Positions 8,086-61,789 of a stretch of 64,000 nucleotides of DNA are shown piece by piece; the stretch's first letter is position 1, and every line of letters starts with the position of its first letter. The position numbers and the translations under genes were made by a program. This stretch comes from a virus: IMG/VR virus record IMGVR_UViG_2531839420_000002, positions 3,685-67,684 of that record; one strand, 5' to 3'. The notes under the pieces are model-generated. The model did no database searches, was not told the origin of the DNA, and worked only from the letters and a program-made list of their open reading frames with translations.

Positions 8086-8248
8086 AACCCCACCCAGCAA
8101 AGCCCCACGGGGCGAGCAGTGATCCGCCGATAGACAAGCTGCCCCTAAAGACATCACGTTCAAATGACGAGCGCGCAAAGACAAGGCGAGTGGACATCGC
8201 TTGACCGTCGCGTTATGTCAGCGCTGACTTAATAAACAAGGAGGCACT

Positions 8249-8491
8249 ATGGAAGACCATGATCAGTTTCGCGAGCGGATGCGCCAGAAGGCGAAGGACA
8301 GCGACGTCAACCCGGCCGTTGCCGACGCCATGATCGACGCCTGTGCAAAGGCGTTCAACCCGTTGCTCCCTGCCGCCATCAACGCTGCCTTAATGAGTAA
8401 CGCCATGACCGCGGTTATGCGTCAGTTCCAGACGGCCGGCGCCTACGATCTGAGCGATACCGATCAACCCGAGCAGAAGCAGGCGGCCTGA
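8249..8491 (+). CDS. Hypothetical protein
   Basis: RBS AAGGAGG; operator-like palindrome upstream. Confidence 0.6.
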   Translation: MEDHDQFRERMRQKAKDSDVNPAVADAMIDACAKAFNPLLPAAINAALMSNAMTAVMRQFQTAGAYDLSDTDQPEQKQAA

Positions 8492-8667
8492 TGGCCATCA
8501 GGGCATTGAAGCTCGACACCTTGGCGGACGTTTTGTCCGCCAAGGTGCCCTTCTGGGAGCGAGTGCAGCTTGACACCATGCCGTTGACGAGCGGCGCCGC
8601 AGCCGAGATCGTTCCAGTCAAGAGACGCCCAGGATCAGCGTTGAACCCGGATTGGAAAAGCTGGTGA
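8491..8667 (+). CDS. Small hypothetical protein (58 aa, below ORF-track cutoff)
   Basis: TGATG overlap with the previous stop; translated by hand as MAIRALKLDTLADVLS..PDWKSW*. Confidence 0.45.
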   Translation: MAIRALKLDTLADVLSAKVPFWERVQLDTMPLTSGAAAEIVPVKRRPGSALNPDWKSW

Positions 8668-8751
8668 CGATCCGCCTCTCGACGAGCCACTCGGGACTGG
8701 GTCATTCTTTCATTAGCGAATAAGCCCATTCGCTAATGAAACGGAGGTCAC

Positions 8752-9147
8752 ATGGACAAGACAGAGATCGGCCAGTTCAAGAACGAACTGGCGCAATTCA
8801 ATGGCGCTGAGCGCTTCTATCGCCACCCCATGAACCAGCAAATCCTCTTCACCGACGGGGTGAAGTTCTTCGCCGAGAGGGCCGGTGCATTCTGGCTCCT
8901 CGACATTCTGGCGACCGAGTTGAACGAAATCCGCAAGGTCGAGGAATTTATCGTCGTGCGGCTGAACGTCACCGGCTCCAAGGCCGTTCTCATCTCCGAT
9001 GATGGCAACGACAACGTGCTGCACACCAAGAACATCTCCCTGACTGACGCCCCCGAAGGCGAATGGAAGTTCTACATGGTCGTGGCTGATCGCGACGCCA
9101 ATGACCGGGTGACGATGACCACCATCATGCTGCCGTCGGAGTATTGA
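8752..9147 (+). CDS. DUF6876-like protein of plasmids and phages
   Basis: LFTDGVKFFAERAGAFWLLD..SDDGND..TTIMLPSEY pattern; RBS GGAGG. Confidence 0.7.
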   Translation: MDKTEIGQFKNELAQFNGAERFYRHPMNQQILFTDGVKFFAERAGAFWLLDILATELNEIRKVEEFIVVRLNVTGSKAVLISDDGNDNVLHTKNISLTDAPEGEWKFYMVVADRDANDRVTMTTIMLPSEY

Positions 9148-9150
9148 ACC

Positions 9151-9363
9151 GTGAATGCCTTCGGATGCCACTGCCCCAAATGCGGCAGCTCTGGCCAGAT
9201 CGACATCTGCGCTCAGGTATGGGTCCGGCTTACCCGCGTTGGCACCGCCGCTGACCTGTCGCGCCAGGGCAATCACGAATGGAATGACGCCAGTCGGGCC
9301 ACTTGTGACTGCGGCTGGACCGGCCGGGTCAACGAGCTGATCAAGGAGAGCGGCAATGGCTGA
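9151..9363 (+). CDS. Small zinc-ribbon protein
   Basis: CPKCGS..CDCGWTG. Confidence 0.6.
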   Translation: MNAFGCHCPKCGSSGQIDICAQVWVRLTRVGTAADLSRQGNHEWNDASRATCDCGWTGRVNELIKESGNG

Positions 9364-9580
9364 CAAGATCGCCTGCCAGAAATGCGGCCGCAAATGGCAT
9401 CCGCATTTGATCGACGCCAAAGACGATGGGACTGGCAACTTCACCATCTTGGAGGGGCCGTGCTGCTACGGCCCGAATTGGGTGCCGACCACCTATACGC
9501 CGATCGGCGACTTCACCCGGTCAATGCTCGACGAGGGGATGAAGATGCATGAAATCCGAATGAGGGAGCTTCAGCCGTGA
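9356..9580 (+). CDS. Small Cys-containing hypothetical protein
   Basis: CQKCGRKW..GPCCYGP; RBS AAGGAG. Confidence 0.55.
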   Translation: MADKIACQKCGRKWHPHLIDAKDDGTGNFTILEGPCCYGPNWVPTTYTPIGDFTRSMLDEGMKMHEIRMRELQP

Positions 9581-9611
9581 TCGGCGAATATGCCAACGAA
9601 GGGAGAGCGTC

Positions 9612-9884
9612 TTGAGGCTGGTTGATTTCGTTCAGGAGACGCTGACCGACATCGGTGCCCAGCTTGCTTGGTTCGCCGACCCCACCACCGGCGATCATCG
9701 CTGGTGGTTCCGGTTGGGCCAAGGCGCTTTCGTCCCCTTCGACGGCAATATTCTGGCGGCCGGTGATCACCAAGAGATTGTTGACCTGATCACGACTGCC
9801 GCGGCGAATTATGACCCTGACGCCATCCCTGAGTGGCAAAGCATGATGTCCCTGCCGACCGTGACGCCTCTCCCGTTCTCGTAA
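9612..9884 (+). CDS. Hypothetical protein
   Basis: ORF in co-directional cluster; RBS GGGAG. Confidence 0.5.
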   Translation: MRLVDFVQETLTDIGAQLAWFADPTTGDHRWWFRLGQGAFVPFDGNILAAGDHQEIVDLITTAAANYDPDAIPEWQSMMSLPTVTPLPFS

Positions 9885-9916
9885 TCTGGATCAGGAATAA
9901 CGAGAGGAATTGAGCT

Positions 9917-10249
9917 ATGACAGAGTTGGCATACAACCCGCGCTATGCAAATTACGCCAGGGCTCACGGTCGAACGCCTGAAGAACAAGTAGCGCAGGAT
10001 CACCTCGACTGGCCCGGCGGCTCGATGTGCGGCTTCATGTTGTGGAACCGTGAGAAGGTCGGGGAGTTCGGAAAGGTAAATCCCGACGCCTTCATGGCAG
10101 GCGGCTTGTGGGATCATGCCGCCTATGATGCGTGGTTGACCGCCGAAGTGGACAAGATCACCGCGACCTGGGGCGAAGGCATGGACAAGAAGCCGTTGTT
10201 CGCCAGCGAAGAGCTGGAACCTTTGACTACGGACGGGGAGGGCGTCTGA
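9917..10249 (+). CDS. Hypothetical protein
   Basis: YNPRYANYARAHGRTPEEQ..FMLWN pattern; RBS GAGG. Confidence 0.65.
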   Translation: MTELAYNPRYANYARAHGRTPEEQVAQDHLDWPGGSMCGFMLWNREKVGEFGKVNPDAFMAGGLWDHAAYDAWLTAEVDKITATWGEGMDKKPLFASEELEPLTTDGEGV

Positions 10250-10250
10250 C

Positions 10251-10433
10251 ATGGCGATGAATGATCTGACGTGGCTCGACCGCAGGATCGCCGAACAGGC
10301 CGCTTATTACGGACTCGCCGTGGAGCGGTTTATCAAGACATCGAGCGATCTGGCCGAGGCCCAGGAAATAGCAGAAGCCACCGGCGAGTTCGCCTTCGAT
10401 CTACCGCCCGCGCAGCCGCAAGTATCTCCGTAA
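10251..10433 (+). CDS. Small hypothetical protein
   Basis: Starts 2 nt after the previous stop. Confidence 0.5.
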   Translation: MAMNDLTWLDRRIAEQAAYYGLAVERFIKTSSDLAEAQEIAEATGEFAFDLPPAQPQVSP

Positions 10434-10462
10434 ACTGGTCTCATCAACAACGGGGAAAGCCC

Positions 10463-10738
10463 ATGAGAACCTCGAACGCTGCCGGGCATGAGATCAAGCA
10501 CCCGGACGAAGTCATGACCCTGGACGAGCGCGCCTTCCAGATGTGGGCAGTTCACCCGAAGGATCTCGACAACCTCGGTTTCAAGACCAGGGTGAACTTC
10601 TTCAAGGCCCACCTGATCGCGGCGCAGGGAGGGAAAACCTTCTGCGTCGGCTGCCAGGATGAGCATAGTTGCTCCCATGAGGTGGTTGAGCGTTGCGCCG
10701 GTCTGCTGTTCCAAGCTCGTGAGCGAGTCGCGCCATGA
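10463..10738 (+). CDS. Hypothetical protein with C-terminal Cys cluster
   Basis: CVGCQDEHSC..C; ATGA overlap with next gene. Confidence 0.55.
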   Translation: MRTSNAAGHEIKHPDEVMTLDERAFQMWAVHPKDLDNLGFKTRVNFFKAHLIAAQGGKTFCVGCQDEHSCSHEVVERCAGLLFQARERVAP

Positions 10739-12027: not shown

Positions 12028-12057
12028 GGCGTAGATAGAAGAACCAGGAGTGTGCCA

Positions 12058-14574: not shown

Positions 14575-14580
14575 TTACGA

Positions 14581-15768: not shown

Positions 15769-16377
15769 TCAAGCCAGGGGAGGGGCGTTCGCCTCTCCCC
15801 GCTTCGTCAATTCGCGAATTAGCCATGGTCGTCTGGAGGTGTCGCCTCGGTGCCGCCTGTTGGATACGGCGGGGCTCGTCGCCAGGTGAGCCGTGGCGGC
15901 GCCATAAGGATACGGCACGGACTCAGACAGGCGATCCTATGGCGCCGCCATAAGGATACGGCTCACGCCTGACCTGGGATGTCCTGGCGGCGCCGCCGCC
16001 GAGCCAGACTTCCCCGTTCGATCCCCGTCTCGGGTTGAACGCGGGGGCTTTTTCGTCCCCTCCCCGCGTTCGGGGCTTCTGTCCCCTCCCGTCACTTCCC
16101 GAGGTGGGTATCCCCGGGATGCTCGCCTCTTTGGGCTATGTCGCTTTCTTCATCGCTGTCTCATTTCGCGTCCCTCGAAACCGTTGCTCATGGGTCTTTT
16201 ATAACCCCGTCTTTTGAGGGACGCAATACCCTTTTTTATGTCCCTTCGTTTTTTTGCGCCCTCGCTTTCAAAGAGCGCGAGCGCAACCCCCTTTATAAGA
16301 GGGGGAGGAGGGACAAACCCAAATTTTCCCTTGTTTTCAAGGACGACCAAAAAAATCAGTCAGCATTGATTTTTCTG

Positions 16378-16416
16378 TTGCGTAGGACATTCGGGACGCT
16401 ATTATGAGGGACACAA
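16378..16416 (+). promoter_or_regulatory. Sigma70-like promoter followed by GAGGGACACAA leader
   Basis: TTGCGT-N16-TATTAT, immediately followed by GAGGGACACAA. Confidence 0.55.
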
Positions 16417-16457
16417 GCGACGCACAAAGCGACGCAACAAACGAAGGGATAGACATC

Positions 16458-21493: not shown

Positions 21494-21534
21494 GTCTATC
21501 TCTCGCTTGATGCGACGTTAAATCAACCTTGACT

Positions 21535-21846
21535 TTATTTTTCATCGCTGTCAAGAGGCTCCGCGTCGAGCGCGAAACGCTCCGTGAAACGCTGATACAA
21601 TTCATCAAGCGCGCCTTCGCCCTCGGGGGTAAAAGCCCAGGTCAGCATGATGGCCCAGCCGCGACTGCTGTTTGACCCCTCCGTTTGCTCGGACGCTAAC
21701 ATGCAGGAGACCTCACCCGTTTCCGTAATCAACACCGCGGAGTCGCGCGGACCAAGCACGACCAGGGTTGTGCCCAGCTTAGAATAGATGACCGACAGGG
21801 TGTTGGTGATCAGCTCGACGAGCCAGCGCTTCATGTGGCACCTCAA
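21535..21846 (-). CDS. Hypothetical protein
   Basis: Coupled ORF in the leftward operon. Confidence 0.5.
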   Translation of the reverse strand: MRCHMKRWLVELITNTLSVIYSKLGTTLVVLGPRDSAVLITETGEVSCMLASEQTEGSNSSRGWAIMLTWAFTPEGEGALDELYQRFTERFALDAEPLDSDEK

Positions 21847-22040: not shown

Positions 22041-22370
22041 CTACCCCTGCAATGCCTTGATCAGCTCAGCCTTCTGCTCGGGAGTCATGTCGCCGATGAG
22101 TTTCTTGATGGCCGACATCTTCGCCTTGCCCTTGCGCGGGCTGATGAACGGTTCAGCCAACCTTTCGAGATGCGGAAAGGTGTCATCGTTGAGATAATGC
22201 TCGGCAAGCAGACAAACGACCCGGTTCTGATCCACACCAAGACGCTTGGTCGCCGCCTGCAACTTCTCGCTCGCTTCAAGCGTGAGTCCCATAGAGGTCT
22301 TGCGAGGGTAGTCATTAACAGCCATTGCATATCTTTCACAAGATGGTTCTTCTGTCCCCATTATACACAC
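22041..22370 (-). CDS. Small putative DNA-binding (RHH-like) protein; start uncertain
   Basis: SMGLTLEASEKLQAATKRLGVDQNRVVCLL resembles a strand-helix-helix fold. Confidence 0.5.
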   Translation of the reverse strand: MCIMGTEEPSCERYAMAVNDYPRKTSMGLTLEASEKLQAATKRLGVDQNRVVCLLAEHYLNDDTFPHLERLAEPFISPRKGKAKMSAIKKLIGDMTPEQKAELIKALQG

Positions 22371-22382: not shown

Positions 22383-23924
22383 TCAAGCGGCTTTCTTTCG
22401 AGCCTCAAAGCCCAAACCCTCGAAATCGAAATCGACCGAACGCGGGAGAATGTTTTCGACGAAGCCCGGCGTGTCCTCCACGATCGCCCGCCGAGTGAGC
22501 GCGTGCTTCTTCAAGTGGCTATTGTGCTCATCCGAGAAGTCCACGATGAAAGCGACGTTGGGGCCAAACTTTTTAGCGCGCAAGCCGCGACCAATGCGCT
22601 GACGCAGAGCAATCTCAGCCTTGCCGCCGCCGGCGAGGATCACCATGCCGACCGCAGGCACGTCTACGCCCACGTCAAGAATGGTCGAGCCGATCACCAC
22701 GTCGATCCGCCCGTCGCCCAGCTTCTTCAGCGTGGTCCGACGCTTGTCCCGATCGGACTCACCGAAGATGAACTCCACTCGAAGGCCGGCGGCGATCAGT
22801 CGGTCCTTCAGCAGCCGGCCGTGATCCTTCCGACCAACCAGGATCATCACCGGGAGCCCATAGCTCGCGGCCCGCACCGCCTCGAACACGATGTCGGCGT
22901 TGCGATGCTGGTTCTCGATGATCCCGAGATTGACAGCGCGCTGGTAGGAGCTGCCGCGCTTTAGCTTCTCCGGGCACTTCGAAGAGACATACTTGAAGAA
23001 CGGCTTGGCCAGAATGCCGCGCTCGATCAGCATCTTCTCGGTGATCTTGATCCCGATTGACCCGATGCAGGCCATCAAGCGCGCATTTGACTCTTCGTCC
23101 TGGCGCATGAACGGCGTCGCGGTCAGCGCAAGACGGTAGTAGGCGTTCTTGCAATGTCGAGCGACCTGATAGAACGAGTCCGAGCCTACCTCGTGGGCCT
23201 CCTCGAGGATCAAGAACTCGAAATACTCAAGGAACTTAATGGTTTTGGCACGAACAGCCGCCTGCCGAGCCTGTTTCTCCGGCGGATCGAAGGGGTCAGG
23301 CTCTTTCAGCTTGGCCGCCAAGGTCTGCACCATGCCGCAGTTGACGCCCTTCTTCGGCTCCCACTGGCTGTCGCCCAGGATGCCAGGCACGAAGCCGGCC
23401 TCCCTGAAGCCGTCGGCCATCTGATACATCAGCACCGACCTGGTGGTCAGGAACAGGGTTGGTCGCCGAATGCGCGCCACGGCGAGCTTGGCGATCTTCG
23501 ACTTGCCGCCGCCGGTGGCCACCTGAGCAACCATCTGCCCCAGCTTCAACAGTCGGCGCACCGTCTCCATCTGGTAGTCGTAGCGCGGATCGTCGTTGCC
23601 GAACCCATCAACAATCGGGTTCTCGGGACCGAGAGGGGCGGGCAGGGGCTTTTTCACCAACTGAACACGATGCCCGAGCCTGATCAGCTCAGAATGGACC
23701 TTGTGAAAAAAGCCAGCGGGGAAGGTCCCCGATCGCATGTCGAAGAAGCTCGACCGACCGTCCCAGCCTTTCGACTTATAGGCATCGGTGTATTCGTAAC
23801 CGTCAACCTTATAAGACAGAAGCTCCGAGATACAGAGCTTCACATCCCTGTCGGCGTTGAACAGTTTCGCCACAATGGCGTTGGCTGCGATCTGAATAAC
23901 GGCCACGTCCTTTTCCCTTGCCAT
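22383..23924 (-). CDS. Superfamily 2 DEAD/H-like helicase (UvsW/ResIII-like)
   Basis: YDYQ Q-motif; VATGGGKS; LEEAHE; LALTATP; TILDVGVDVP; QRIGRGLR. Confidence 0.92.
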   Translation of the reverse strand: MAREKDVAVIQIAANAIVAKLFNADRDVKLCISELLSYKVDGYEYTDAYKSKGWDGRSSFFDMRSGTFPAGFFHKVHSELIRLGHRVQLVKKPLPAPLGPENPIVDGFGNDDPRYDYQMETVRRLLKLGQMVAQVATGGGKSKIAKLAVARIRRPTLFLTTRSVLMYQMADGFREAGFVPGILGDSQWEPKKGVNCGMVQTLAAKLKEPDPFDPPEKQARQAAVRAKTIKFLEYFEFLILEEAHEVGSDSFYQVARHCKNAYYRLALTATPFMRQDEESNARLMACIGSIGIKITEKMLIERGILAKPFFKYVSSKCPEKLKRGSSYQRAVNLGIIENQHRNADIVFEAVRAASYGLPVMILVGRKDHGRLLKDRLIAAGLRVEFIFGESDRDKRRTTLKKLGDGRIDVVIGSTILDVGVDVPAVGMVILAGGGKAEIALRQRIGRGLRAKKFGPNVAFIVDFSDEHNSHLKKHALTRRAIVEDTPGFVENILPRSVDFDFEGLGFEARKKAA

Positions 23925-23965
23925 TCGCGAATAGGCGAATTAGAGTTTAAGTCAGCGTTGACTTA

Positions 23966-24613
23966 ATGGCAATACCTATGAAACAGCTTGATCTCGACCC
24001 CCGGCTGTTGAAGCCGAACCCCTGGAACACCAACATCATGTCGCCCGACAATGAGGCGAAACTGGACGAGTCGATCCGTCGGTTCGGCATGTTCAAGCCC
24101 GTGGTCGTTCGCGAGCTGCCCGATGGCTCCCTGGAGATCCTCGGTGGCGAACACCGCAACGAAGCGGCTATTCGTCTGCGCCTGCCGACCATTCCGGTTG
24201 TCAACCTCGGCCCGATCGACGATCACAAGGCCAAGGAGATCGGGTTGGTGGACAACGGACGCTACGGCGCAGACGACACGCTGGCCCTGGCAGACTTGCT
24301 GTCCGAACTTGGATCGGCCGAGGATCTCGCGGAATTCCTTCCCTACAGTGACACCGAGCTGTCCGCGATCTTCTCCAGTTCCAGTATAGTGTTGGACGAT
24401 CTCGAAACTTTCGGCGAAGAAGAAGATCCGACGAAAGAACCTTCCTTGAAGATGCCGAAGACTCACACTATTCAGCGCTTCAAGGTTCCGCTTGAAGACG
24501 CCGAACGAATTTCAGAACTGATCGAGAAGACCATGCGTGAACAGGGTTTTACCGAGAGCGACGCTCTCACAAACGCCGGGGACGCTTTGGTGTTCCTTCT
24601 GCGCAATTCGTAA
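23966..24613 (+). CDS. ParB N-terminal (ParB/Srx) domain protein
   Basis: LKPNPWNTN..LDESIRRFG..PVVVR..ILGGEHR..AA. Confidence 0.85.
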   Translation: MAIPMKQLDLDPRLLKPNPWNTNIMSPDNEAKLDESIRRFGMFKPVVVRELPDGSLEILGGEHRNEAAIRLRLPTIPVVNLGPIDDHKAKEIGLVDNGRYGADDTLALADLLSELGSAEDLAEFLPYSDTELSAIFSSSSIVLDDLETFGEEEDPTKEPSLKMPKTHTIQRFKVPLEDAERISELIEKTMREQGFTESDALTNAGDALVFLLRNS

Positions 24614-24628
24614 AGTCAGGGTTGACTG

Positions 24629-28229: not shown

Positions 28230-28607
28230 ATGGTTTTTTTTCTGCTGATCCTTTCCTTGCTGATCATTGCTCACTTCGTGGCGGATTTTGCTCTGCAAAA
28301 CGAATTCGTCGCCAAGTTCAAGGCTCGATCGTCGGGTGTGACCTGGTGGCCCTGGGTGCTGTCGAGCCACTCTTTCGCCCACGGCGGCATCGTCGCGCTC
28401 GCCGCCGTAATCGGAACCTCGTTCGGACTGAGTGAGTGTGCGGTTCTTGGTCTGATCCTAGCGGAAACGGGGGCTCACGCCCTGACTGATTTTGCCAAGA
28501 CCGAGGGGTGGTTTGGCGCCGGGGATCGCGCATTTCACATCGACCAGACGATCCACATCGTCACGAAGATCGCATGGGCCGCCGTCATTGTTGGGGTCGC
28601 CGCATGA
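28230..28607 (+). CDS. DUF3307-like membrane protein
   Basis: AHFVADFALQ..H..H..HALTDFAK..DQTIH His/Asp motif pattern. Confidence 0.75.
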   Translation: MVFFLLILSLLIIAHFVADFALQNEFVAKFKARSSGVTWWPWVLSSHSFAHGGIVALAAVIGTSFGLSECAVLGLILAETGAHALTDFAKTEGWFGAGDRAFHIDQTIHIVTKIAWAAVIVGVAA

Positions 28608-28882
28608 GCGGCACCCTAATGATGTCGCAAAAGCAGATCGCCATCATTAGGGCGATCATGCGCGGCAATGCCGAAGGCGACTTTGTGGATCTGGACGAAC
28701 TGCTGAAGCTGCTGCCATACACGACCACCAAACAGAGTCTTCAGTTCTCGATCCGGGCGCTGATCAAGCATGGTCTAATCGAGAAGAGACCGAGGGAGGT
28801 GCGCCGGGGACGAGCACGCAGAGTTCTGGCCCCTACGCTGCTGGCTTACAGGTTGATGGGTGAGGGCATTCCGGGGACGTGA
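28604..28882 (+). CDS. Winged-helix DNA-binding protein upstream of terminase
   Basis: KQ..II..I..DLDELL..TTKQSLQFSIRALIKHGLIEK..RRGRARR. Confidence 0.75.
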   Translation: MSGTLMMSQKQIAIIRAIMRGNAEGDFVDLDELLKLLPYTTTKQSLQFSIRALIKHGLIEKRPREVRRGRARRVLAPTLLAYRLMGEGIPGT

Positions 28883-28924
28883 GTCGGCGCTGTCCATTCA
28901 ACGCTGACTTTTTGCTTGCGCGCG

Positions 28925-29035: not shown

Positions 29036-29184
29036 CACGAGCGCCGCTGAGGACACCCTCCGGGAAACGAAGGACAGTCCCATTCATAAAGTCAGCTTTG
29101 ACTTGACACGCAACCCCGGAATGGGTGATCATGTTGGCTCATGTGGGACGACCTTTCTGACTGGTCCCTCCGTTCCGTTCCGTC

Positions 29185-29210
29185 GGGCGCCCCTCGGGGC
29201 GCCCTTTTTT
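29185..29210 (+). terminator. Hairpin with T-run just upstream of terS
   Basis: GGGCGCCCC-tc-GGGGCGCCC followed by TTTTTT. Confidence 0.55.
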
Positions 29211-29223
29211 CTGGGTGTGACGA

Positions 29224-31144: not shown

Positions 31145-31196
31145 TATTGCCGTAAAGTCAAGGCTGACTTACCATAGAGGCACCAGGAGAATAGGA

Positions 31197-33719: not shown

Positions 33720-33845
33720 ATCATCAATTCGGATCGAATGGAAAGTCAGCGTTGACTTTATGTGCCTTATGGCGCGATAATTAAGTCAACGCTGACTTTC
33801 CGTCGGAAAGCGTGTCTGGTTCCAACGGGCAATAGGGAGTAATTC

Positions 33846-34790: not shown

Positions 34791-34822
34791 GCCTTGATGT
34801 AAAGTCAGGGTTGACTTAAACT

Positions 34823-34856
34823 AGAGGGCGGGGGAAACCCCGCCCTCTACGTTTTT
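34823..34856 (+). terminator. Terminator hairpin after capsid gene
   Basis: AGAGGGCGGGG-gaaa-CCCCGCCCTCT followed by ACGTTTTT. Confidence 0.65.
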
Positions 34857-36608: not shown

Positions 36609-37372
36609 TCGAAAGCGCCAAACAGCGCTGGTTCGATGCCGAGAGGGCGGGGGAGCGCTACGCTTCCTTGGCCCATGGCATGAACGGGCTTTACGCCGAG
36701 GCTTTGGGCAGCGTCGATCCGACCTCGCCCAAAGCGCGCTCTGACCTTCGTATCGCCATTTACCAGCTTGCCCAGAGCTTCGTCGCTGGCGAACAGGCCT
36801 TCATTGACGATGGGCTCACGGTCGCCGCTCACCAGGGACTCGCTGACGCCCTGGAAGCGCTGGGGTTGGGTGAGACTACTGCCCCTGATCTTCCAGAGCC
36901 CGTCAGCGAGCTTCTGAGCGCGACCGGGGAGCATCTGCGCGCTGAAATCGTGATGCAGATCGAGCGTGACGTTCTGGCCGTCGAGAAGCGGCTGCGCGAT
37001 CTCGCGCTCAAGGTCAACGTGATGACTCGGGCCAGTGACATCTCGAAGCGGGCTGCGATTATTCGTGCCCAGATCAAGGATCGCGGCAGTGTCGAATTCT
37101 CCTTCGTGGATCGCGCCGGCCGCCGATGGCCCAGTCAGCGCTATATCTCGACCGTTTGGCGTCAGCACCTTCTGAATGTTCACGTTGAGACGACCCTTCA
37201 TGTCTTCGCTGAGCGCGGGGCGCAGGCGGTCGAAGTGGTTCATCCCGATCCTAAGAGCGCCAAAAATGGTCTGATGTTCGGTCTTGTCGGACAGCATGAT
37301 CTGCCCGGTCTCGATGAGATCCGCGACGATGTTTTCCATCCGAATTCGCAGGTCTGGTTACGTCCTTTATAA
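36605..37372 (+). CDS. Minor head / morphogenesis protein
   Basis: Position; F.DRAGRRW..Y pattern and C-terminal FHPNS seen in minor capsid proteins. Confidence 0.5.
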   Translation: MIESAKQRWFDAERAGERYASLAHGMNGLYAEALGSVDPTSPKARSDLRIAIYQLAQSFVAGEQAFIDDGLTVAAHQGLADALEALGLGETTAPDLPEPVSELLSATGEHLRAEIVMQIERDVLAVEKRLRDLALKVNVMTRASDISKRAAIIRAQIKDRGSVEFSFVDRAGRRWPSQRYISTVWRQHLLNVHVETTLHVFAERGAQAVEVVHPDPKSAKNGLMFGLVGQHDLPGLDEIRDDVFHPNSQVWLRPL

Positions 37373-37421
37373 AGTCAGCTTTGACTTTATAAAGCCTTCG
37401 ATGGCTGATATAATCGAAGCC

Positions 37422-38659: not shown

Positions 38660-39190
38660 ATGGCGAGCGATACCAAAAACGTCAAACTGGGGGTGTGCAA
38701 GATCACCTTCGGCGGCACCGACCTGGGTTACACCAAGGGCGGTGTTGAGGTGGAAGTGACCACCGAGGTTCATAAGGTGACGATTGACCAGTTCGGCACC
38801 ACCAGTGTCGCCGACCTGATCCAGGGTCGGAACATCAAGGTGAAGGTGCCCCTGGCTGAGACCACCCTGGAGAACCTGGTGAAGATCATGCCGGGCGCGA
38901 CCCTGGTGACGGACGGGACGACCCCGACCAAGAAGCGGGTGGATGTGCAGACCGGCATCGGCATCAATCTGCTGGATGTCGCCCAGGAGATGATCCTGCA
39001 TCCGGTCTCGAAGGCCGACGCTGACGTGAGCGAGGACTTCATCATCCCGAAAGCGGCCACCGCCGGCGCCCTGAACTTCGCCTACAAGGTGGACCAGGAG
39101 CGCATCTTCAACACCGAGTTCAGCGGCTACCCGGACCCGGAAACCAAGGTTCTGTTCAAGGTCGGCGACAAGACCGCTGTCGCTGCGTAA
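38660..39190 (+). CDS. Major tail (tube) protein
   Basis: NVKLGVCKITFGG.DLGYTKGGVEVEV..DQFG..RIFNTEF.GYPD. Confidence 0.85.
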   Translation: MASDTKNVKLGVCKITFGGTDLGYTKGGVEVEVTTEVHKVTIDQFGTTSVADLIQGRNIKVKVPLAETTLENLVKIMPGATLVTDGTTPTKKRVDVQTGIGINLLDVAQEMILHPVSKADADVSEDFIIPKAATAGALNFAYKVDQERIFNTEFSGYPDPETKVLFKVGDKTAVAA

Positions 39191-39261
39191 TTCGTCAAGT
39201 CAGCGCTGATTTGTCTGTGCGGCGGATCAGCGCTGACCAACCACAAGCCAGGAAGATAGAC

Positions 39262-39887: not shown

Positions 39888-39917
39888 GTAAGTCAAACTT
39901 GACTTTATAGGTGGGCG

Positions 39918-43768: not shown

Positions 43769-44389
43769 ATGGCTCGCCATCTCTCTGTCGGAACCGTCAT
43801 TGAGAAGAACAGAATTGCCTCGAACGTCGCCTTCGTCATTTTGATCGAGGTCGAGGTGAAGGATAGCTTCGGGAACCTGGTTGAAATACTCAGAATGGCC
43901 AGGAACAACGAACCAATCATCTTTCAGGACAATGAGTATGTTGCGGCAAATTTCGAGTTGAGCTTGAAGGAGCAGGCTGGCTCGATCCCAGAGATCCAGG
44001 TTGTCGCCCAGGATCATACCTTGGCGATCCAGCAGCGGATGCAGGAATATGGCGGGGGCGTCGGGTTCGGCATCAGGATGATCGTCGTCAACACGGGCAA
44101 TCTCAGTCAACCGCCCGAAATCGTCGAGACCTTCAAGGTCATTCGGGCCAGCGCTCGCGGCTATGTTGTGACTTTCGGGCTCGGCGCAGAGAACCCCCTG
44201 TCGATGCGTTTCCCGCGCCGTCGGCAGATGCGTGATCGCTGCTCTTGGCGCTTCGGAAGCGCCGAGTGCGGCTATGTCGGCGATCTTCGCTCGTGCGATC
44301 TTTCTCTTCAGGGGCCGAACGGGTGCGCGGCTCACGGGAACACCCGGCGCTTTGGCGGCTTCCCTGGTCTTTCTGTGGGTAAAAGATAA
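43769..44389 (+). CDS. Minor tail protein (lambda gpL-like, C-terminal Fe-S Cys cluster)
   Basis: CSW.F.SAECGY..CD.SL..GC..HGN..RFGGFPG. Confidence 0.85.
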   Translation: MARHLSVGTVIEKNRIASNVAFVILIEVEVKDSFGNLVEILRMARNNEPIIFQDNEYVAANFELSLKEQAGSIPEIQVVAQDHTLAIQQRMQEYGGGVGFGIRMIVVNTGNLSQPPEIVETFKVIRASARGYVVTFGLGAENPLSMRFPRRRQMRDRCSWRFGSAECGYVGDLRSCDLSLQGPNGCAAHGNTRRFGGFPGLSVGKR

Positions 44390-44401
44390 AGTCAACGCTG
44401 A

Positions 44402-44824
44402 ATGGTGCAAACTCACAAGGATGTGGTAGAATTGATCGGTATCGCGTTCCGTTACGGCGGGCGCGGGCCCGAAGACTACGACTGTTGGGGCCTGTTGATG
44501 GAGCTGTGTCGCCGGGATAATAAAGTCATCCCTGACTTTCGCAGCACTTCCAATATAGCGAAGATCGCCAGGATCATGGCGACCAACAGGCACCAGTGGC
44601 GACAGATCGAGCTTCGGCCAGGCTGCGGGCTCTGGTTTCGGGTCCGGGGGTTCGCGTCGCACGTCGGCTACTACCTGGGGAACGACAAGTTCGTTCACAC
44701 CTGGGAGGAGTCAGGCGGCGTTGTGGTTGAGCGGCTGAGCCAGTGGGAACACCGTCTGATTGGGGCCTTTGAGTATGTCGGAGACGAAGCAGATCCAGCC
44801 GCTTTACGCCCTGGCGAACCCTGA
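44402..44824 (+). CDS. NlpC/P60 tail assembly protein (gpK C-terminal-like, no JAB domain)
   Basis: GI.FRYGGR..DCWGL..HVGYYLG..FVH. Confidence 0.88.
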   Translation: MVQTHKDVVELIGIAFRYGGRGPEDYDCWGLLMELCRRDNKVIPDFRSTSNIAKIARIMATNRHQWRQIELRPGCGLWFRVRGFASHVGYYLGNDKFVHTWEESGGVVVERLSQWEHRLIGAFEYVGDEADPAALRPGEP

Positions 44825-49037: not shown

Positions 49038-49116
49038 GTTGTAAAGTCAGCGCTGACTTGCTAACACCCCTTCGATAGCGCATAATAGGGGGCAGCGCTG
49101 ACTTGCCAAGGAGACA

Positions 49117-49563
49117 TTGATGAACGACACCCTGAAGATGCACGGCGCGATGGAAGCTGTGCTCGTCCGCGCCAACGGCGATGTGGAAGTGATCCGCAAG
49201 GACAACATCATCGTGGATGTGGGCTTCGATTTCATCGCCGACGCCATCGGGAAGGTCGCCAGCCGCCCGAACGTGATGGGCTACATCGCCGTCGGGACCG
49301 GCTCGACCGCGCCCGCCACCTCTCAGACCGCCCTGGTTACGGAGCTGGCCCGCGCCGCCGCCACCTATTCCCACACGACCGGCACCAAGACCTTCACCTT
49401 CACCACCACTTTCGCCGCCGGCACCGCTACCGGCGCCATTCAGGAGGCTGGAGTGTTCAATGCGTCCTCGTCCGGCATCATATTTGATCGCGTGACCTTC
49501 TCGGTGGTCAACAAGGGCGCGGACGACAGTCTGACCATCACCTTCACCTTCACCATGTCGTAA
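49117..49563 (+). CDS. Tail fibre base / fibre-associated protein
   Basis: KDNIIVDVG..IAVGTGST..T.L..E..EAGVFNA..R..F.VVNK pattern. Confidence 0.75.
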   Translation: MMNDTLKMHGAMEAVLVRANGDVEVIRKDNIIVDVGFDFIADAIGKVASRPNVMGYIAVGTGSTAPATSQTALVTELARAAATYSHTTGTKTFTFTTTFAAGTATGAIQEAGVFNASSSGIIFDRVTFSVVNKGADDSLTITFTFTMS

Positions 49564-49596
49564 TCGTCAAGTCCGCGCTGACTTGAAAGGATAGAC

Positions 49597-51149: not shown

Positions 51150-51195
51150 TTGTCTTGACCTCCTCGCGAGGCTATAATAAAGTCAACGCTGAGTT
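51150..51195 (+). promoter_or_regulatory. Sigma70 promoter with operator immediately after -10, upstream of the fibre-partner-rSAM genes
   Basis: TTGTCT-N17-TATAAT, then AAGTCAACGCTGAGTT. Confidence 0.6.
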
Positions 51196-52914: not shown

Positions 52915-54207
52915 ATGGAGCCGATTTTTCACGAGGTAACGCTTCGGGATCGGGGTGGAAAAGATGAAGTTTTCCGTTTCGACAGCGCCAACATGCGTTT
53001 GCTTGATCAATTTGGCGTTCTGATCGAGCCAAAGATTGACGCTTCTCTTCCGACCTTCGGAAGTTGTGGATCGAAGCCTGCAAGGGTTATTTCTCCGACG
53101 GCTCCCGGACGAAAGAGTCGCGATCTTTCATATATCAAGCTGCTGCTTGGCTTTTCTTGCAACTTCAATTGCACCTATTGCAATCAGAGGTCTCAGACGC
53201 ATGATGGCGCAAGCACGGGTGATCCCGAGGCGTTCGTCGAGGGGATGTCCAAGTGGTGCTCGGGCGGGAGCGATGATCTAGGTTCTGGTCTTCGCATGAG
53301 CCTGTGGGGCGGTGAGCCATTCGTTTATTGGAGCGTTTTGAAAAAGATGGTTCCCGCGCTGCGGCGACGCTACCCGCATATCGCCCTGAGCATGGTGACG
53401 AATGGGTCGCTTCTGACCCAGGAGCGCGTGAACTTTGTGTGCGAAAACGACATCAATTTGATGATCAGCCATGATGGACCTGGCCATTATCTTCGAGGAG
53501 TTGATCCCTTAAAGGACTCCTCCATTGTGGAGCTGATTTGTCAGCTTCTTGATCGTCGTGGCAAGGAGAAGGTTGGCTTCAATTGTGTTTTGACCAGGGA
53601 GAATTGCTCCCTGTCGAGAATTCACGATCACATCGCTGAAGCTCTTGGTCGTGAAGATTTTGGGTTCTCGACGGAGGGTGTTGTTCAGACTGAGGACGAC
53701 GGTTCTTTTTCGGTTTCCCCATCGTCGAAGGAAAATTACGAGGATATTTATTTGACGCTGCTGAAAGATGCCATCGAAGGGGGCGCTCTCAAGGCTGGAA
53801 CCTACAACCTCGAATATATCGGTGCCCTGAGAGCCTTTTCGGAGCACCCGGAAATGAATGCGTGGGGTCAGCGCTGCGGTTTGGACCGGGATGACGTGTT
53901 GGCGGTTGATCTTGCTGGCAATGTTTTAACTTGTCAGAACGAGATTGATCCCTCAATGCGAATTGGCCACGTAAACAATCTCGACGCGGTGCGCTTGAAT
54001 ACCAGCTATCACTTTATGGCGCGCGAGAGTTGTGTTCGTTGTCCTGTAGTGCAGCTTTGCAAAGGCGGCTGTATGCATCAGACGGGAGTTGCTTGGGAAA
54101 CGACCTGTCGCAATCATTACCACTATCATCTTTCTGTTCTGGCCACGGCGATATTCTCCATGACGGGCAAGATTTTAGTAGGGATTTGCTCTGACGATAA
54201 GGCGTAA
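52915..54207 (+). CDS. Radical SAM/SPASM-domain protein (peptide/protein maturase type)
   Basis: CNFNCTYC (CxxxCxxC); WGGEPF; TNGSLL; ISHDG; SPASM C..D..G....C and CVRCPVVQLCKGGC..C. Confidence 0.93.
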   Translation: MEPIFHEVTLRDRGGKDEVFRFDSANMRLLDQFGVLIEPKIDASLPTFGSCGSKPARVISPTAPGRKSRDLSYIKLLLGFSCNFNCTYCNQRSQTHDGASTGDPEAFVEGMSKWCSGGSDDLGSGLRMSLWGGEPFVYWSVLKKMVPALRRRYPHIALSMVTNGSLLTQERVNFVCENDINLMISHDGPGHYLRGVDPLKDSSIVELICQLLDRRGKEKVGFNCVLTRENCSLSRIHDHIAEALGREDFGFSTEGVVQTEDDGSFSVSPSSKENYEDIYLTLLKDAIEGGALKAGTYNLEYIGALRAFSEHPEMNAWGQRCGLDRDDVLAVDLAGNVLTCQNEIDPSMRIGHVNNLDAVRLNTSYHFMARESCVRCPVVQLCKGGCMHQTGVAWETTCRNHYHYHLSVLATAIFSMTGKILVGICSDDKA

Positions 54208-54298
54208 AGTCAGCGTTGAATGATCGCTTTTAGCGTGAGATAATGAACGGGCCGCGGCGGTGCTCGCGGCCCGTTCACTCATTTGAGAGGAGACCGCA

Positions 54299-55815: not shown

Positions 55816-55897
55816 ATTTTGGCTACACGATAAAGTCAGCGTTGAGTTACAATAGGCGATGGGGCAAAAGCCCTCGCTCAACGACCGGGGAAAAGAA

Positions 55898-56694: not shown

Positions 56695-57495
56695 ATGGAC
56701 GCAACGACAACTCGTCGGCTTTTTGGCCCGTTCTACGGCTGCGACTTTACGTTCGCGGCGATGGAGAAGATGGCTCTGCGCAAGGTCAGCCCGTCTGGTC
56801 CAGCGACCAAGAAGGCGATCGAGGGCGAGGATGAGAAGGTCAAAGTCACAAAGAGCCGCCCGCTGGTCACGGAAAAGATGTTCCTGGCCGAGGCTGAACT
56901 GATGCGCTCGAAGTGGTTCGACTATCGACGTATGCACCCGGTTCAGGCCACCTTCCTGTTCGCTCATTGCTACACTCTGGGCGTCAAGCGCGCATGGCGG
57001 AAATACATTGACCACGAAGCGGCAGAAAGGGCGCGTGGGCTCGCTGACGAGAACGTGTTCAAGCTGGAGCCGGGTGGTTTCACTGGCGTCTGGAAGGCTC
57101 GTCAAACCGCCGACCTGATGGGACTGCCTTACGACTTCTTCGTCAATCGCCAGATGGATCTGGCGCTCGACGGCTGCTGGAACCAGGTTCCGCGACCGTG
57201 TCATCTCTACGACCCCGATCGGCTGGCTAACGTCTCACTGGCTTGGGACGAGTGGACCGAAGCCAAGCTCCAGATGGCGAGCGATCCCTGGTATCTGCTC
57301 GTCAATTATGTCGGACATCGGAACCAGGACGCTCATCAGGAATGGCTGATCTCTCAGGCCAAGAGGCGCGCCCGGCCCGAGTTCATTCTGTCCACGATAT
57401 GTTTTAAGGAGCCGATGCTACTTCCCGAGCGCGCCGTCGCTGTTTTCGGGGATAGAAAGATCGAGATCGCTCGTGAAATTGCCTCTTCCAATTAA
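56695..57495 (+). CDS. Conserved hypothetical phage protein
   Basis: SKWFDYR.MHP.QAT..F..Y pattern; 266 aa with RBS. Confidence 0.75.
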   Translation: MDATTTRRLFGPFYGCDFTFAAMEKMALRKVSPSGPATKKAIEGEDEKVKVTKSRPLVTEKMFLAEAELMRSKWFDYRRMHPVQATFLFAHCYTLGVKRAWRKYIDHEAAERARGLADENVFKLEPGGFTGVWKARQTADLMGLPYDFFVNRQMDLALDGCWNQVPRPCHLYDPDRLANVSLAWDEWTEAKLQMASDPWYLLVNYVGHRNQDAHQEWLISQAKRRARPEFILSTICFKEPMLLPERAVAVFGDRKIEIAREIASSN

Positions 57496-57551
57496 GTCAG
57501 CGTTGACTATACTAGACGAAACGACGCGAACCGAGCGAACGGAGATAGATC

Positions 57552-57818: not shown

Positions 57819-57820
57819 GC

Positions 57821-59185: not shown

Positions 59186-59577
59186 CGATGAAGTTGTTCG
59201 TGCCCCCGCTGGGGACCAGACTGCGGCTCACCGCAGACTGGACCTTTCCTCTTTTCAACGAGCATCGCAATTACGCGCTCATCAAGCGGCTTGAGCTGAT
59301 CTGGCCTGAGTCTACCACGTCGTATGACCATTGGCATCGAACCGAGTTGAGTCAGGACGTGACGCTGCCGGTGGGGACCATCCTGACGGTGGATCGGATC
59401 TATATTCGTCAGGGCCAGGACAATTTCGACAGCATGACCTTCACGGTTTTCGACTGCCCCGATATGCGACTGCGCAGTAAGTCGAAAGGCGGGCCGATAG
59501 CCGGTCGCGTTCGCTTCTGGGCCAAGCTGGAAAACATCAATGGTCTGGAATGCGAACTGTTCGAGGAGGTTGCCTGA
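59182..59577 (+). CDS. Hypothetical protein
   Basis: GTGA overlap; L.LT.DW.F.L..E.RN..L..VDRIYIRQG..TF..RFW.KL pattern. Confidence 0.65.
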   Translation: MTMKLFVPPLGTRLRLTADWTFPLFNEHRNYALIKRLELIWPESTTSYDHWHRTELSQDVTLPVGTILTVDRIYIRQGQDNFDSMTFTVFDCPDMRLRSKSKGGPIAGRVRFWAKLENINGLECELFEEVA

Positions 59578-59960
59578 TGGGCAAGCAGACCATTTGCGTG
59601 GATTTCGACGGCGTAATTCATGCCTACACCAGCCCGTGGTCCGGCCCCGCGGTGATCTCCGATGGGCCGGTGCCCGGCGTCATTGAATGGCTGGTTCAGA
59701 TGTCCGAGCACTTCTCGGTGGCGATCTACTCGTCGCGCAGCAAGCACGAGGTCGGTTACGAGGCGATGCAGGAATGGCTTTACGAGCACATGCAGGCGGC
59801 CGGCTACGGCGCTCGTCAGTTTGCCGCCCTGAAGTGGCCCACCGAAAAGCCGCCGGCGGTTCTCTATATCGACGATCGGGCTTGGCGTTTCGACGGCCCC
59901 GGCACCTTGCCGACTCCCGAGCAGGTGCAGACTTTCAAGCCCTGGAATAAGGCGGCCTAA
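59577..59960 (+). CDS. HAD-superfamily phosphatase (phage PNKP phosphatase / 5'-nucleotidase-like)
   Basis: ICVDFDGVIH (DxD); YSSR; KP; YIDDRA. Confidence 0.82.
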   Translation: MGKQTICVDFDGVIHAYTSPWSGPAVISDGPVPGVIEWLVQMSEHFSVAIYSSRSKHEVGYEAMQEWLYEHMQAAGYGARQFAALKWPTEKPPAVLYIDDRAWRFDGPGTLPTPEQVQTFKPWNKAA

Positions 59961-60030
59961 CGCCGCGCGACACGCCGGGGTGTGCTGGGGCACAGTTCGC
60001 TAGTTCGCTAATTCACGGATCGGAGGGAAC

Positions 60031-60366
60031 ATGAGCGTCAAAATTGGCGACACCCTGTATCGTCACGACCCCTATCGCACGCGCCCGGAGGATCGTATCG
60101 AAAAATTCACCGTCGTCGGCGAGACGCGGGTGAGCTGGATTGTCGAGCGTTATCGGCGGGAGATCAGGGTCAGCAAGAGCGATCTGACCTACAACGAGCC
60201 GCCCTATGGGCGGCGCCAACTCTACACTCGTGCGCAGATCGAGGAGCTTGAGTGGATAAAGGCCAACAGACCGAAAATCATTGATTGCGTAACGAAAACT
60301 GACAACATCAGTCTTTTGCGCGCCATCGTGGCGGTGATCGAGTCTCATGACACGAGGGCGTCATGA
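60031..60366 (+). CDS. Hypothetical protein
   Basis: RBS GGAGG; VVGETRVSW pattern. Confidence 0.65.
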   Translation: MSVKIGDTLYRHDPYRTRPEDRIEKFTVVGETRVSWIVERYRREIRVSKSDLTYNEPPYGRRQLYTRAQIEELEWIKANRPKIIDCVTKTDNISLLRAIVAVIESHDTRAS

Positions 60367-60605
60367 GGACATGCTTGGATTGCGCCCTGTCGTATCAAGA
60401 GATTAGGGCTGTCGGTGTCGGCGTCGTGTTCATCGGTATTCGCTGCGCTCGCAAGTCGAGTGGATGGAAGGACCAGGTAACAGGCGTCTGGCGCGTCGCC
60501 GGCTTGCTGAGCGCTTATCGGCAACGCCGATTGCCGAGTTGGTGGGATCGCGATCGCTGTGGTCCCGAGGCACGCTATTTCCGCTCCAAGGAGAAGACGG
60601 AATGA
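60363..60605 (+). CDS. Small Cys-containing hypothetical protein
   Basis: CLDC..C..CGPEARYF; ATGA overlaps. Confidence 0.55.
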   Translation: MRTCLDCALSYQEIRAVGVGVVFIGIRCARKSSGWKDQVTGVWRVAGLLSAYRQRRLPSWWDRDRCGPEARYFRSKEKTE

Positions 60606-61705
60606 GTCGTGAGAAATCCCAAGAGCTGCTTGAAGCCATCGACATGGAATATTACCTCGATCGCGAAGCCATCGAATATCGGGCGGGGATGGGTTCGTCT
60701 GGGCCGCAGCTCAATCTGCGAACTTGCCCCGTCTGCGGCGGTGATGCCTGGAAGGTCTATATTGGCGCCGAGACGGGCCTGGGGAACTGTTTCCACGGGT
60801 CCTGTGGTGCGACCTTCAACAAATATTCCTTCATCAAGGCGCACCTGGGCAATCCGCCTGCGGCAGTCGTTCGAGCCCACATTATCGACGTGGCGCGAGA
60901 GATGGGCTGGCGCCCGGCCAGGAAGGTCGCCAGAGCGGTAGAGATGGATGCTGGCTGGGAGCTGCCTCACAGCATTCCGCTGCCGACCGAGGATGGTCAG
61001 AACCTCCAGTATCTCGAAGATCGCGGCGTGACCACCGAATTGGCGGCCTATTTTCATCTTCGCTACTGTCATGACGCTTGGTTCAACTACACCGACTCCG
61101 AGGGTAAGCGGAAGGGTCAGCACTTTGGCGGCCGGGTGATCGTCCCGGTGTTCAATATGGCCGGCAACCTGGTCACGTTCCAGGGTCGTGACATCACCGG
61201 CGCCGCCGATCTGCGCTATCTGTTTCCGAAGCAACTGCCAGCGACGGGGCGCTATCTCTACAACGCGCACAACGCGGTGGGCGCCAAAGCCGTGTGTGCC
61301 GGTGAGGGCGCTTTCGACACGATTGCCATCAAGAAGGCGTTCGACATGGAGCCTGGCCTGCGCGATGTGGTGCCGATCGGAACCTTCGGCAAGCACCTAT
61401 CTGGCCGTCTGGAGGCTAACAGCCCAAGTGGGGATGACCAACTCGGGGCCGTGATCGAGCTGAAGACCAGGGGTTTGGTCGAGTGGACCACCATGTGGGA
61501 CGGCGAAGTGGCTGCTTTGGAGGATGCGGTCAAGGCTGGCGAGCAGATCAGAAAGGTAGGCGTTCGTTCGTTCGTCGCTCTGCTGCCGAAGGGGCGCGAT
61601 CCCAACGAGGTGCCGCCGGCCGAGGTGATTAAAGCTTACATGCGTCGTATCGAACTGACCCCGGCGAACATGGTCAAGCTGCGTCTCAAGAACCCTTATC
61701 GGTGA
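60602..61705 (+). CDS. DNA primase (Zn-binding and TOPRIM domains)
   Basis: CPVCGG..NCFHG.C; RVIVPV..FQGR; GEGAFD; MWDGE; DPNE. Confidence 0.9.
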   Translation: MSREKSQELLEAIDMEYYLDREAIEYRAGMGSSGPQLNLRTCPVCGGDAWKVYIGAETGLGNCFHGSCGATFNKYSFIKAHLGNPPAAVVRAHIIDVAREMGWRPARKVARAVEMDAGWELPHSIPLPTEDGQNLQYLEDRGVTTELAAYFHLRYCHDAWFNYTDSEGKRKGQHFGGRVIVPVFNMAGNLVTFQGRDITGAADLRYLFPKQLPATGRYLYNAHNAVGAKAVCAGEGAFDTIAIKKAFDMEPGLRDVVPIGTFGKHLSGRLEANSPSGDDQLGAVIELKTRGLVEWTTMWDGEVAALEDAVKAGEQIRKVGVRSFVALLPKGRDPNEVPPAEVIKAYMRRIELTPANMVKLRLKNPYR

Positions 61706-61789
61706 AAGAGCGGCAAGTCAGCGTTGACTATTGATCCGCCGTCAGCGTGTCAGATATAACGATTGAACGGAACGAAGCACGAGGGACGC

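Follow-up and report, generated by a model that had tools for sequence, protein, structure and literature searches.

A palindrome repeated at gene junctions of an SSU5-type phage-plasmid, the probable operator of a phage-encoded dimeric regulator

The viral DNA described here raises the question why one short palindrome, AAGTCA-N4-TGACTT, recurs at so many of its gene junctions and which molecule reads it. The window, i.e. the whole stretch of 64,000 nucleotides under analysis, corresponds to positions 3,685 to 67,684 of the IMG/VR record IMGVR_UViG_2531839420_000002 (G000:C60:3685-67684, positions within contig C60). A first-pass annotation of this DNA had described about 20 copies of the palindrome at gene junctions and had suggested that a single dimeric regulator controls almost every structural and replication cistron individually. 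Counts and intergenic placement confirm that the palindrome is indeed repeated at gene junctions. It is probably the operator of a phage-encoded, dimeric and sequence-specific DNA-binding regulator that would act mainly as a repressor. Such an operator is supported by the confinement of the motif to the phage contig, by its co-variation between relatives at syntenic junctions, by uncompensated deviations from its consensus and by fixed positions at recognisable promoters.

In the window the exact palindrome is found 10 times with 0.00 copies expected, and with up to two mismatches there are 26 copies versus 1.42 expected (largest shuffle value 5). When the whole 3.8-Mb genome is searched with at most one mismatch, 30 of the 31 sites lie on C60 (the reversed control pattern gives 4), and a de novo count of inverted repeats returns AAGTCA-N4-TGACTT as the top palindrome of this contig. 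A codon-usage model called 169 genes on C60, and 89% of the contig is coding. With up to two mismatches 37 of the 43 matches on the contig are intergenic (binomial P = 9.5e-30), and with up to one mismatch none falls within an open reading frame (ORF). Thus, the enrichment over a shuffled background and in intergenic DNA, on which the operator proposal had been made to depend, is strong. The earlier statement that no copies occur inside ORFs is true at this stricter threshold, and the ORF-internal matches of the window (at 258, 62039 and 62537) all carry two mismatches, consistent with chance expectation. Even the half-site AAGTCA alone is about 22-fold denser between genes, with 33 occurrences in 12.1 kb of intergenic sequence versus 12 in 98.3 kb of coding sequence.

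Further analysis was based on a set of 39 sites, defined as intergenic sites of the unit genome that are anchored on either perfect half-site. Of these, 24 are located in the window and the others extend past it, up to window-coordinate 104112. According to column statistics the consensus reads GTA-AAGTCA-GCGY-TGACTT-TAC in its extended form, the centres of the two half-sites being separated by 10 bp. This 16-22-mer has two-fold symmetry, conservation is limited to these 16-22 bp and the flanks are variable; no column beyond the extended motif is conserved, i.e. there is no -35 or -10 element at a fixed distance. All 18 near-perfect copies reported previously, from 23949 to 61715, were found again. 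Among the weaker ones those at 8215, 21520 and 28895 are present but those at 39224 and 49089 are very degenerate, and the earlier list omitted an exact copy at 44523 and a copy with two mismatches at 16357. As a separate observation, a GCG(T/C)AATTCG-like word recurs just 5' of several copies (24600-24612, 33725-33742, 39185-39196 and 49557-49568), and GCGAAT-N6-ATTCGC occurs four times on C60.

The approximately 39 copies mark genes of packaging, head, tail, lysis, replication and nucleotide metabolism. A site is carried by 32 of the 76 intergenic gaps of at least 25 nt. In the block from 21.5 to 62 kb of the window, which runs from the cassette 5' of terS through the packaging, head, tail and lysis genes into the first part of replication, 23 of 28 gaps carry one, followed by about 15 of 31 gaps between 62 and 106.6 kb. 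The early and accessory region has sites in two of 25 gaps, both of them weak, the rep gaps have none and the gaps of the minus-strand par-helicase block have a single one (21520). This distribution, with sites at lytic genes and few or none at early, rep or par genes, fits a regulator of the lytic programme. The core of the first proposal, one dimeric regulator with distributed operators, is the best-supported reading, but individual control of almost every cistron was too strong a claim since sites are dense only between 21.5 and 62 kb.

Part of the sites is arranged in a regular manner with respect to promoters. The latter were predicted by consensus scans for sigma70-like elements, at least 9 of 12 consensus matches being needed for the geometry set. 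Among the 39 sites there are 11 site-promoter pairs in which the centre of the palindrome occupies one of three positions. Four pairs have it at +2.5 or +3.5. The exact copy 23949-23964 (centre at about +3.5) follows the promoter TTGCCA-17-TAGAGT (23918-23946, plus strand), which heads the operon coding for ParB-like, ATPase and winged helix-turn-helix (wHTH) proteins. Another exact copy (33783-33798, about +2.5) begins 2 nt past the -10 element of the major-capsid promoter TTGACT-18-GATAAT (33752-33781, plus strand). The half-site copy 49089-49104, with a perfect right arm, is centred at about +3.5 of the promoter TTGCTA-17-CATAAT (49058-49086), and a copy with one mismatch (51180-51195) at about +2.5 of TTGTCT-17-TATAAT (51150-51178). 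At these four well-formed promoters the -10 element ends 1-3 nt ahead of the palindrome and the predicted start of transcription lies inside its left arm.

Five further pairs have the centre at -41.5 or -42.5 (29089, 37372, 49044, 76509 and 97074). They include the exact copies 29089-29104, at about -42.5 of the promoter TTGACA-18-GATCAT (29103-29132) 5' of terS, and 49044-49059, at about -41.5 of the promoter 49058-49086 mentioned above. In the remaining two pairs the centre is found at -36.5 or -37.5. Here the right half of the palindrome constitutes the -35 element, namely TTGACT of the capsid promoter at the exact copy 33743-33758 (centre about -37.5) and TTGAAT of the promoter 54216-54244 at the copy 54207-54222 (two mismatches). 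The suggestion that the right half supplies a -35 hexamer therefore holds, with correct spacing to a -10 element, for 33743 and 54207, but at the five sites centred near -42 merely its last 2 nt overlap the -35 box. Another possibility, TAAAGT of the left arm acting as a -10 element of its own, was rejected as a suitably spaced -35 box is present at only one or two sites. Both the capsid promoter and the promoter 49058-49086 combine an upstream copy with a copy around +3, the two being 40 and 45 bp apart, respectively. A -10 element that ends just ahead of a palindrome is also seen at the capsid promoter of the Rhizobium phages RHph_X66 and RHph_N1_10 (hereafter X66 and N1_10) and of the loci L018, L020, L021, L022 and L035.

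The exact copy 34802-34817 is found between convergent gene ends, where it follows the capsid stop codon and precedes the intrinsic terminator 34822-34849, and this order is kept across the family. The terminase/portal junction carries another exact copy (31155-31170) that is syntenic in X66 and in Salmonella phage SSU5. Overlap with stop codons had been noted as frequent: TAAAGT does occur at 14 of the 39 sites, but its TAA is a real upstream stop at only about five of them. Such overlap is seen at 37372-37387 (exact), at 44389-44404 (two mismatches) and at 24613-24628 (one mismatch), the last of which also abuts the next start codon and has no promoter.

Contig C60 has a length of 112,764 bp and a G+C content of 59.7%. 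The initial 2,406 bp (1-2406) are repeated at 110358-112764 with 99.9% identity, so the unit genome has about 110.4 kb. This end repeat either stems from the overlap of a circular assembly or consists of direct terminal repeats; for a relative, Rhizobium phage B1VFA, terminal repeats of 3.6 kb were reported (PMC12509600). The portal, terminase and capsid proteins have 48-58% identity to those of the Rhizobium phages X66, N1_10 and RHEph10, and similar values are obtained with phage SSU5 and with Klebsiella/Escherichia phage-plasmids. The packaging and capsid region is matched by 965 PLSDB plasmids, including replicons of Klebsiella, Escherichia, Salmonella, Yersinia and Acinetobacter as well as 107-117-kb plasmids of Methylobacterium, Shinella, Pararhizobium, Rhizobium and Cupriavidus. 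Additionally C60 codes for ParA with a small partner, for its own replication genes and for a sigma factor, and one of its regions is homologous to the surroundings of RepC in X66. Packaging and capsid homology together with the plasmid functions and the PLSDB matches place this contig in the SSU5 supercluster, and judged by its sequence it is an SSU5/RHEph10-type phage-plasmid of about 110 kb.

The relatives possess comparable palindromes of different sequence. X66 has AAGTAA-N4-TTACTT with 29 exact copies and 38 copies at up to one mismatch (37 of the latter intergenic). SSU5 shares the core of X66 and has about 25-30 distinct sites (41 overlapping matches), and N1_10 has 30 sites of the type CAATCA-N4-TGATTG at up to two mismatches. 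The motif classes were surveyed in 26 IMG/VR loci and three plasmids, while a scan of genome contigs gave no useful relatives. An AGTCA-N4-TGACT class is found in L029, L035, L020, L022 and the Methylobacterium and Cupriavidus plasmids, an AGTAA-type class in L037, L038, L040 and the Shinella plasmid, a TAACTAA-type class in L023, L026 and L031 and a TGTGTG-type class in L024, L025 and L032. In a further class, ACTTAC...GTAAGT, the same pentamers are found but the arms are everted (L034, L036 and L039, e.g. L039:14730-14751 and L036:12958-12975). Syntenic positions are the terminase/portal junction (one copy), the capsid promoter (two), the gap that separates the capsid stop codon from a strong intrinsic terminator (one) and the junction of the tail genes M and L (one). 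As the same or a co-varied palindrome occupies the same junctions in the relatives, the element is family-wide. X66 and N1_10 infect the same host genus and have different motifs, which requires that the reader be encoded by the phage and that sites and reader have changed in concert between lineages. SSU5 (JQ965645.1; L007, L010 and L011) has in addition a second palindrome, AAACAA-N-TTGTTT, with 11 exact copies, that is distinct from the TAAGTA family.

Whether the palindrome acts as DNA or as RNA can be judged from its deviations. An intercistronic hairpin, serving as processing site, as stabiliser of mRNA ends or as translational operator, would be in line with sites located between a stop codon and the next Shine-Dalgarno sequence, 12 of the 39 ending 0-18 nt before a start codon, an arrangement repeated in X66. 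A hairpin would also suit the single copy that precedes the capsid terminator in nearly all relatives, the capsid-proximal palindrome of L023 (region 9981-10000) and L031 (9981-9996; TAACTAAGGAGTTAGTTA), which encloses the Shine-Dalgarno sequence GGAG and ends 1-2 nt before the ATG, the everted arms of L034, L036 and L039 that can still pair, and the better preservation of the left arm. Nevertheless, among 36 non-consensus arm positions not one is compensated: 27 break a pair, 6 give G-U and 3 would pair in the opposite transcript alone. RNA folding predicts weak stems (median -4.6 kcal/mol, 13 of 39 weaker than -3 and several at 0). Conservation resides in the arms; the centre varies and occurs in both orientations on the same strand (GCGT at 9 sites, ACGC at 5, GCGC at 7). 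At four promoters the predicted start within the left arm means that the respective transcript could not form the hairpin at all, and hairpin function alone leaves unexplained why one identical sequence is found at about 39 places. A DNA site is therefore favoured and an RNA-level element is considered improbable.

Among explanations at the DNA level an activator deserves most attention. The palindrome could be a positive element, bound by a phage activator of middle and late promoters in the manner of Mu C, P2 Ogr, P1 Lpa or T4 MotA, and the small DNA-binding (wHTH) gene directly 5' of terS and the late operon could encode it. Five centres at -41.5/-42.5 and two at about -37 correspond to a class II position, replication and structural genes are marked and the early region is not, and promoter-specificity elements are known to co-vary among phages. 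However, four promoters with 9-10 of 12 matches in their -35 and -10 elements have the palindrome at +2.5/+3.5, where activators do not act; most sites lack a -10 element at any fixed downstream distance, and many are too near to a start codon for a promoter. Since the associated promoters have good -35 boxes they should need no activator, and the layout of activator-dependent promoters, with a single fixed distance to the -10 element and no functional -35, is not the one seen here. We regard such a positive element as unlikely. Still less probable is another DNA transaction such as base modification by the cassette of ParB-like, ABC-ATPase, GNAT and wHTH proteins, nicking, or condensation and looping during packaging. 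Its appeal lies in the conserved cassette that adjoins the terminase genes and ends with the wHTH gene, in the copy at +3.5 of the cassette's own promoter and in relatives with long direct terminal repeats resembling T5-type genomes. A target of modification or nicking has, however, no reason to avoid coding DNA or to keep fixed promoter positions, and the ParB-like, ATPase and GNAT-like proteins show no specificity-determining pattern. That the copies are selfish or recombination-spread repeats without a dedicated trans factor, like repetitive extragenic palindromic (REP) elements or the promoter-stem-loop cassettes of T4-type phages, appears very improbable. Uniformity within a genome with differences between genomes, and the promoter that accompanies some copies, would be expected of them, but the conserved stretch has just 16-22 bp without its flanks, the positions are syntenic across relatives at 45-60% protein identity, and neither a RAYT-like gene nor one for a transposase was noticed on C60 (no specific search was made for them).

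The operator of a dimeric, mainly repressive regulator remains the reading that we prefer. Copies over the start and over the -35 box occupy repressor positions and the -35 boxes are good, which favours repression; the position near -42 leaves room for a dual role. Copies at about +3 and between about -37 and -42 would allow a repressor to occlude RNA polymerase, and sites that are about four helical turns apart could be bound cooperatively. For copies away from promoters, which follow a stop codon and precede the next ribosome-binding site or stand ahead of the capsid terminator, we infer by analogy with mycobacteriophage stoperators a role as roadblocks or as anchors of looping; likewise, we infer from the sequence both that a protein binds the palindrome and the sign of regulation.

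Several findings weigh against this interpretation. About 28 of the 39 sites have no recognisable promoter, and the conserved copy between capsid stop and terminator has no promoter to regulate. A translational or other RNA-level role would fit the sites 0-18 nt ahead of a start codon as well, and centres at -41.5/-42.5 are at the same time the classic class II activator position. Five of the 11 pairs fall in one 2-nt window (Monte-Carlo p ~5e-5, uniform model), but this geometry follows in part from the search itself, since TT or TTGAC of the palindrome enters the -35 match. Furthermore, the left arm is kept better than the right one (33 versus 23 exact intergenic half-sites), which a symmetric dimer site alone would not predict, the everted arms of three relatives are awkward for a fixed dimer geometry, and among the proteins scanned none covaries cleanly with the motif.

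Which protein might be the reader was therefore approached by comparing candidates between relatives. The product of 28604-28882 (plus strand, 92 amino acids), which the first-pass annotation had named, belongs to phrog_900. Its predicted model resembles winged helices of the PadR/MarR/BlaI type with template modelling (TM) scores of 0.70-0.81 (Atlas clusters), and weak profile matches in the PDB point to PadR-like Rv3488 and MarR proteins (E = 0.01-0.1), while a Pfam search gave no match. It is encoded by the last gene before terS in the C60 phage, SSU5, X66 and N1_10, and likewise in 12 IMG/VR loci (by similarity), in 4 more (by synteny) and in three plasmids. As the 23949 copy covers the start of the promoter that heads its operon, the protein could regulate its own synthesis. 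Recognition helices resembling TKQSLQFSIRAL accompany AGT[A/C]A motifs in 9 genomes, the helix RESLMCS is found with TAACTAA, TTRGAMxCSLRH with TGTGTG and SIHSMKF with the everted type. In X66 and Shinella, however, the AAGTAA motif goes along with a helix and a wing that differ greatly, which speaks against this protein, and the helix classes track phylogeny. The candidate is thus a genuine PadR/MarR-like winged helix next to terS, but covariation of its recognition helix with the motif is only partial, and on a rough estimate we consider it as a doubtful though not a negligible choice. If it were the reader, a wHTH belonging to the ParB-like/ABC-ATPase/GNAT cassette may link DNA marking with silencing.

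Other proteins fare worse. For the ribbon-helix-helix-like ORF 22041-22370, the second candidate named before, support is missing: neither Pfam nor PHROG assigns it to a family, and X66 and SSU5 lack a homologue. The XRE protein beside the rep region (L012:2726-3199, minus strand) was detected in X66, N1_10 and three IMG/VR genomes but neither in SSU5 nor in two complete genomes from IMG/VR. Its helix varies among relatives in an uninformative way; by a similarly rough estimate from sequence it is an improbable binder. A sigma factor (L012:7371-8000, window-equivalent 71371-72000; Sigma70_r2, E = 1.7e-9), encoded between cobS and the DNA polymerase III alpha gene and common to X66 and N1_10, was rejected as reader because SSU5 has palindromes without a homologue of it and because the palindrome is not a promoter of sigma type. 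Specificity-determining columns that would separate the motif classes do not cluster in the ParB_N proteins, terS, the ABC ATPase or the GNAT-like protein. In a sliding-window scan of the 29 proteins common to the C60 phage, X66, SSU5 and N1_10 no DNA-binding-like segment tracks the motif, and no unusually diverged protein stood out between X66 and N1_10, as these phages are only about 48% identical throughout. If the wHTH is not the binder, it is probably another small protein, and the reader is probably small and fast-evolving.

Distributed operators as such are familiar. In plasmid RK2 (IncP) the OB sites of KorB and in the Streptomyces phage phiC31 the conserved inverted repeats (CIRs) are short palindromes, about 12-18 per replicon, at and far from promoters, and each set has a known single global binder, the ParB-family protein KorB and the phiC31 c repressor, respectively. 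Compared with the present element these sites are fewer and of other sequence, and the ParB_N proteins encoded here show no specificity pattern. The late promoters of P1 that depend on Lpa and the MotA boxes of T4 combine a phage DNA word with a host-type -10 element, the word replacing the -35 box at a single fixed distance; they differ from the promoters described here, which have good -35 boxes, palindromes at several distances and copies over the start. Phage-plasmid P1 (~94 kb) has 22 dispersed C1 operators, each guarding a separate lytic function (PMC8546580). Similarly, the approximately 39 sites on 110 kb are dispersed over a phage-plasmid, confined to C60 and located at lytic operons; consensus scans place 11 pairs, out of 39 sites, on or near core promoter elements, and the others have no recognisable promoter. 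The C1 sites are asymmetric 17-mers (ATTGCTCTAATAAATTT) and control early functions and the activator Lpa but not every structural operon, whereas the site described here is two-fold symmetric, is densest in late genes and occurs also without a promoter. Cluster A mycobacteriophages (L5 with gp71, Bxb1, TipsytheTRex) have tens of repressor sites termed stoperators, mostly outside promoters and in short intergenic gaps, with motifs that drift with genome and repressor distance (PMC6550527, PMC9283540). These sites are asymmetric, bound by a monomer and oriented with transcription (PMC9283540, PMC6550527). Dispersed and mostly promoter-less sites as well as motif drift between relatives are thus shared, but the present site is palindromic with centres in both orientations on one strand, and a block of elongation is presumed here. 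By sequence and symmetry the element is a member of neither family, though in logic the C1 operators and, equally, the stoperators come closest; it differs from both in its symmetry, its highest density in late genes and the conservation of the whole system over a very broad range of hosts. Searches of the accessible library of papers returned none on this palindrome or on such a control scheme for the SSU5-type family.

Phage-plasmids of the SSU5 type are very common, as the 965 PLSDB plasmids with this packaging and capsid region show, and a conserved operator code offers a handle for finding their master regulator by DNA affinity. Such a code could also predict immunity groups from sequence and map the regulon without experiment, and it represents a natural case in which about 40 binding sites and their reader change specificity together. 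In its widest form, which we put forward only tentatively, the proposal would be that a single new global regulator governs the entire lytic programme of the SSU5/pHCM2/pMT1 supercluster, whose hosts range from Enterobacteria to Rhizobiales and Burkholderiales. The palindromes would then be promoter operators, intra-operon roadblocks and looping anchors that flank the capsid gene, and their specificity, re-tuned in concert at about 30-40 sites per lineage, would create immunity groups.

The other copies of the window and some features next to them are listed for completeness. A weak copy (28895-28910, two mismatches) is located 5' of the exact copy upstream of terS. Between the promoter 29103-29132 and terS there is a strong, G+C-rich, terminator-like hairpin (29185-29204, plus strand) with a T-run before the terS start (stretch 29103-29223); it resembles a terminator or attenuator heading the late operon and hints at control by antitermination. 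The copy 39197-39212 (one mismatch) is followed by the degenerate one at 39224, which keeps only the core TCAGCGCTGA (5 mismatches by eye). Next starts are 12 nt away both at 39890-39905 (exact, 5' of the tape-measure gene) and at 49569-49584 (one mismatch). A 140-aa ORF (44402-44824) begins at an ATG within the right arm of the 44389 copy; it was omitted by the gene caller, leaving a 385-nt "intergenic" gap that may be coding, and the exact copy 44523-44538 immediately follows a GATAAT. The copies 55833-55848, 57494-57509 and 61715-61730 have one mismatch each, as has 21520-21535, which is flanked by two minus-strand genes. At the weak intergenic copy 16357-16372 (two mismatches) the stretch 16357-16420 has an identical extended 3' part (AGTCAGCATTGATTTTYCCGTTGCGT...CTAT) in common with the weak copy at window-equivalent 99903-99965, both with a TTGCGT -35 and a CTATNAT -10 element, so that the two stretches look like a duplicated promoter cassette. 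Finally, the protein encoded by 6742-8085 (447 aa) combines an OmpR-type Trans_reg_C domain (Pfam E = 9e-12) with a following autoinducer-binding domain (E = 1.5e-22). Homologues of it are absent from X66 and SSU5, and shortly downstream of its gene a copy with one mismatch (ATGTCAGCGCTGACTT) is found at 8215-8230, with the next start 18 nt on.

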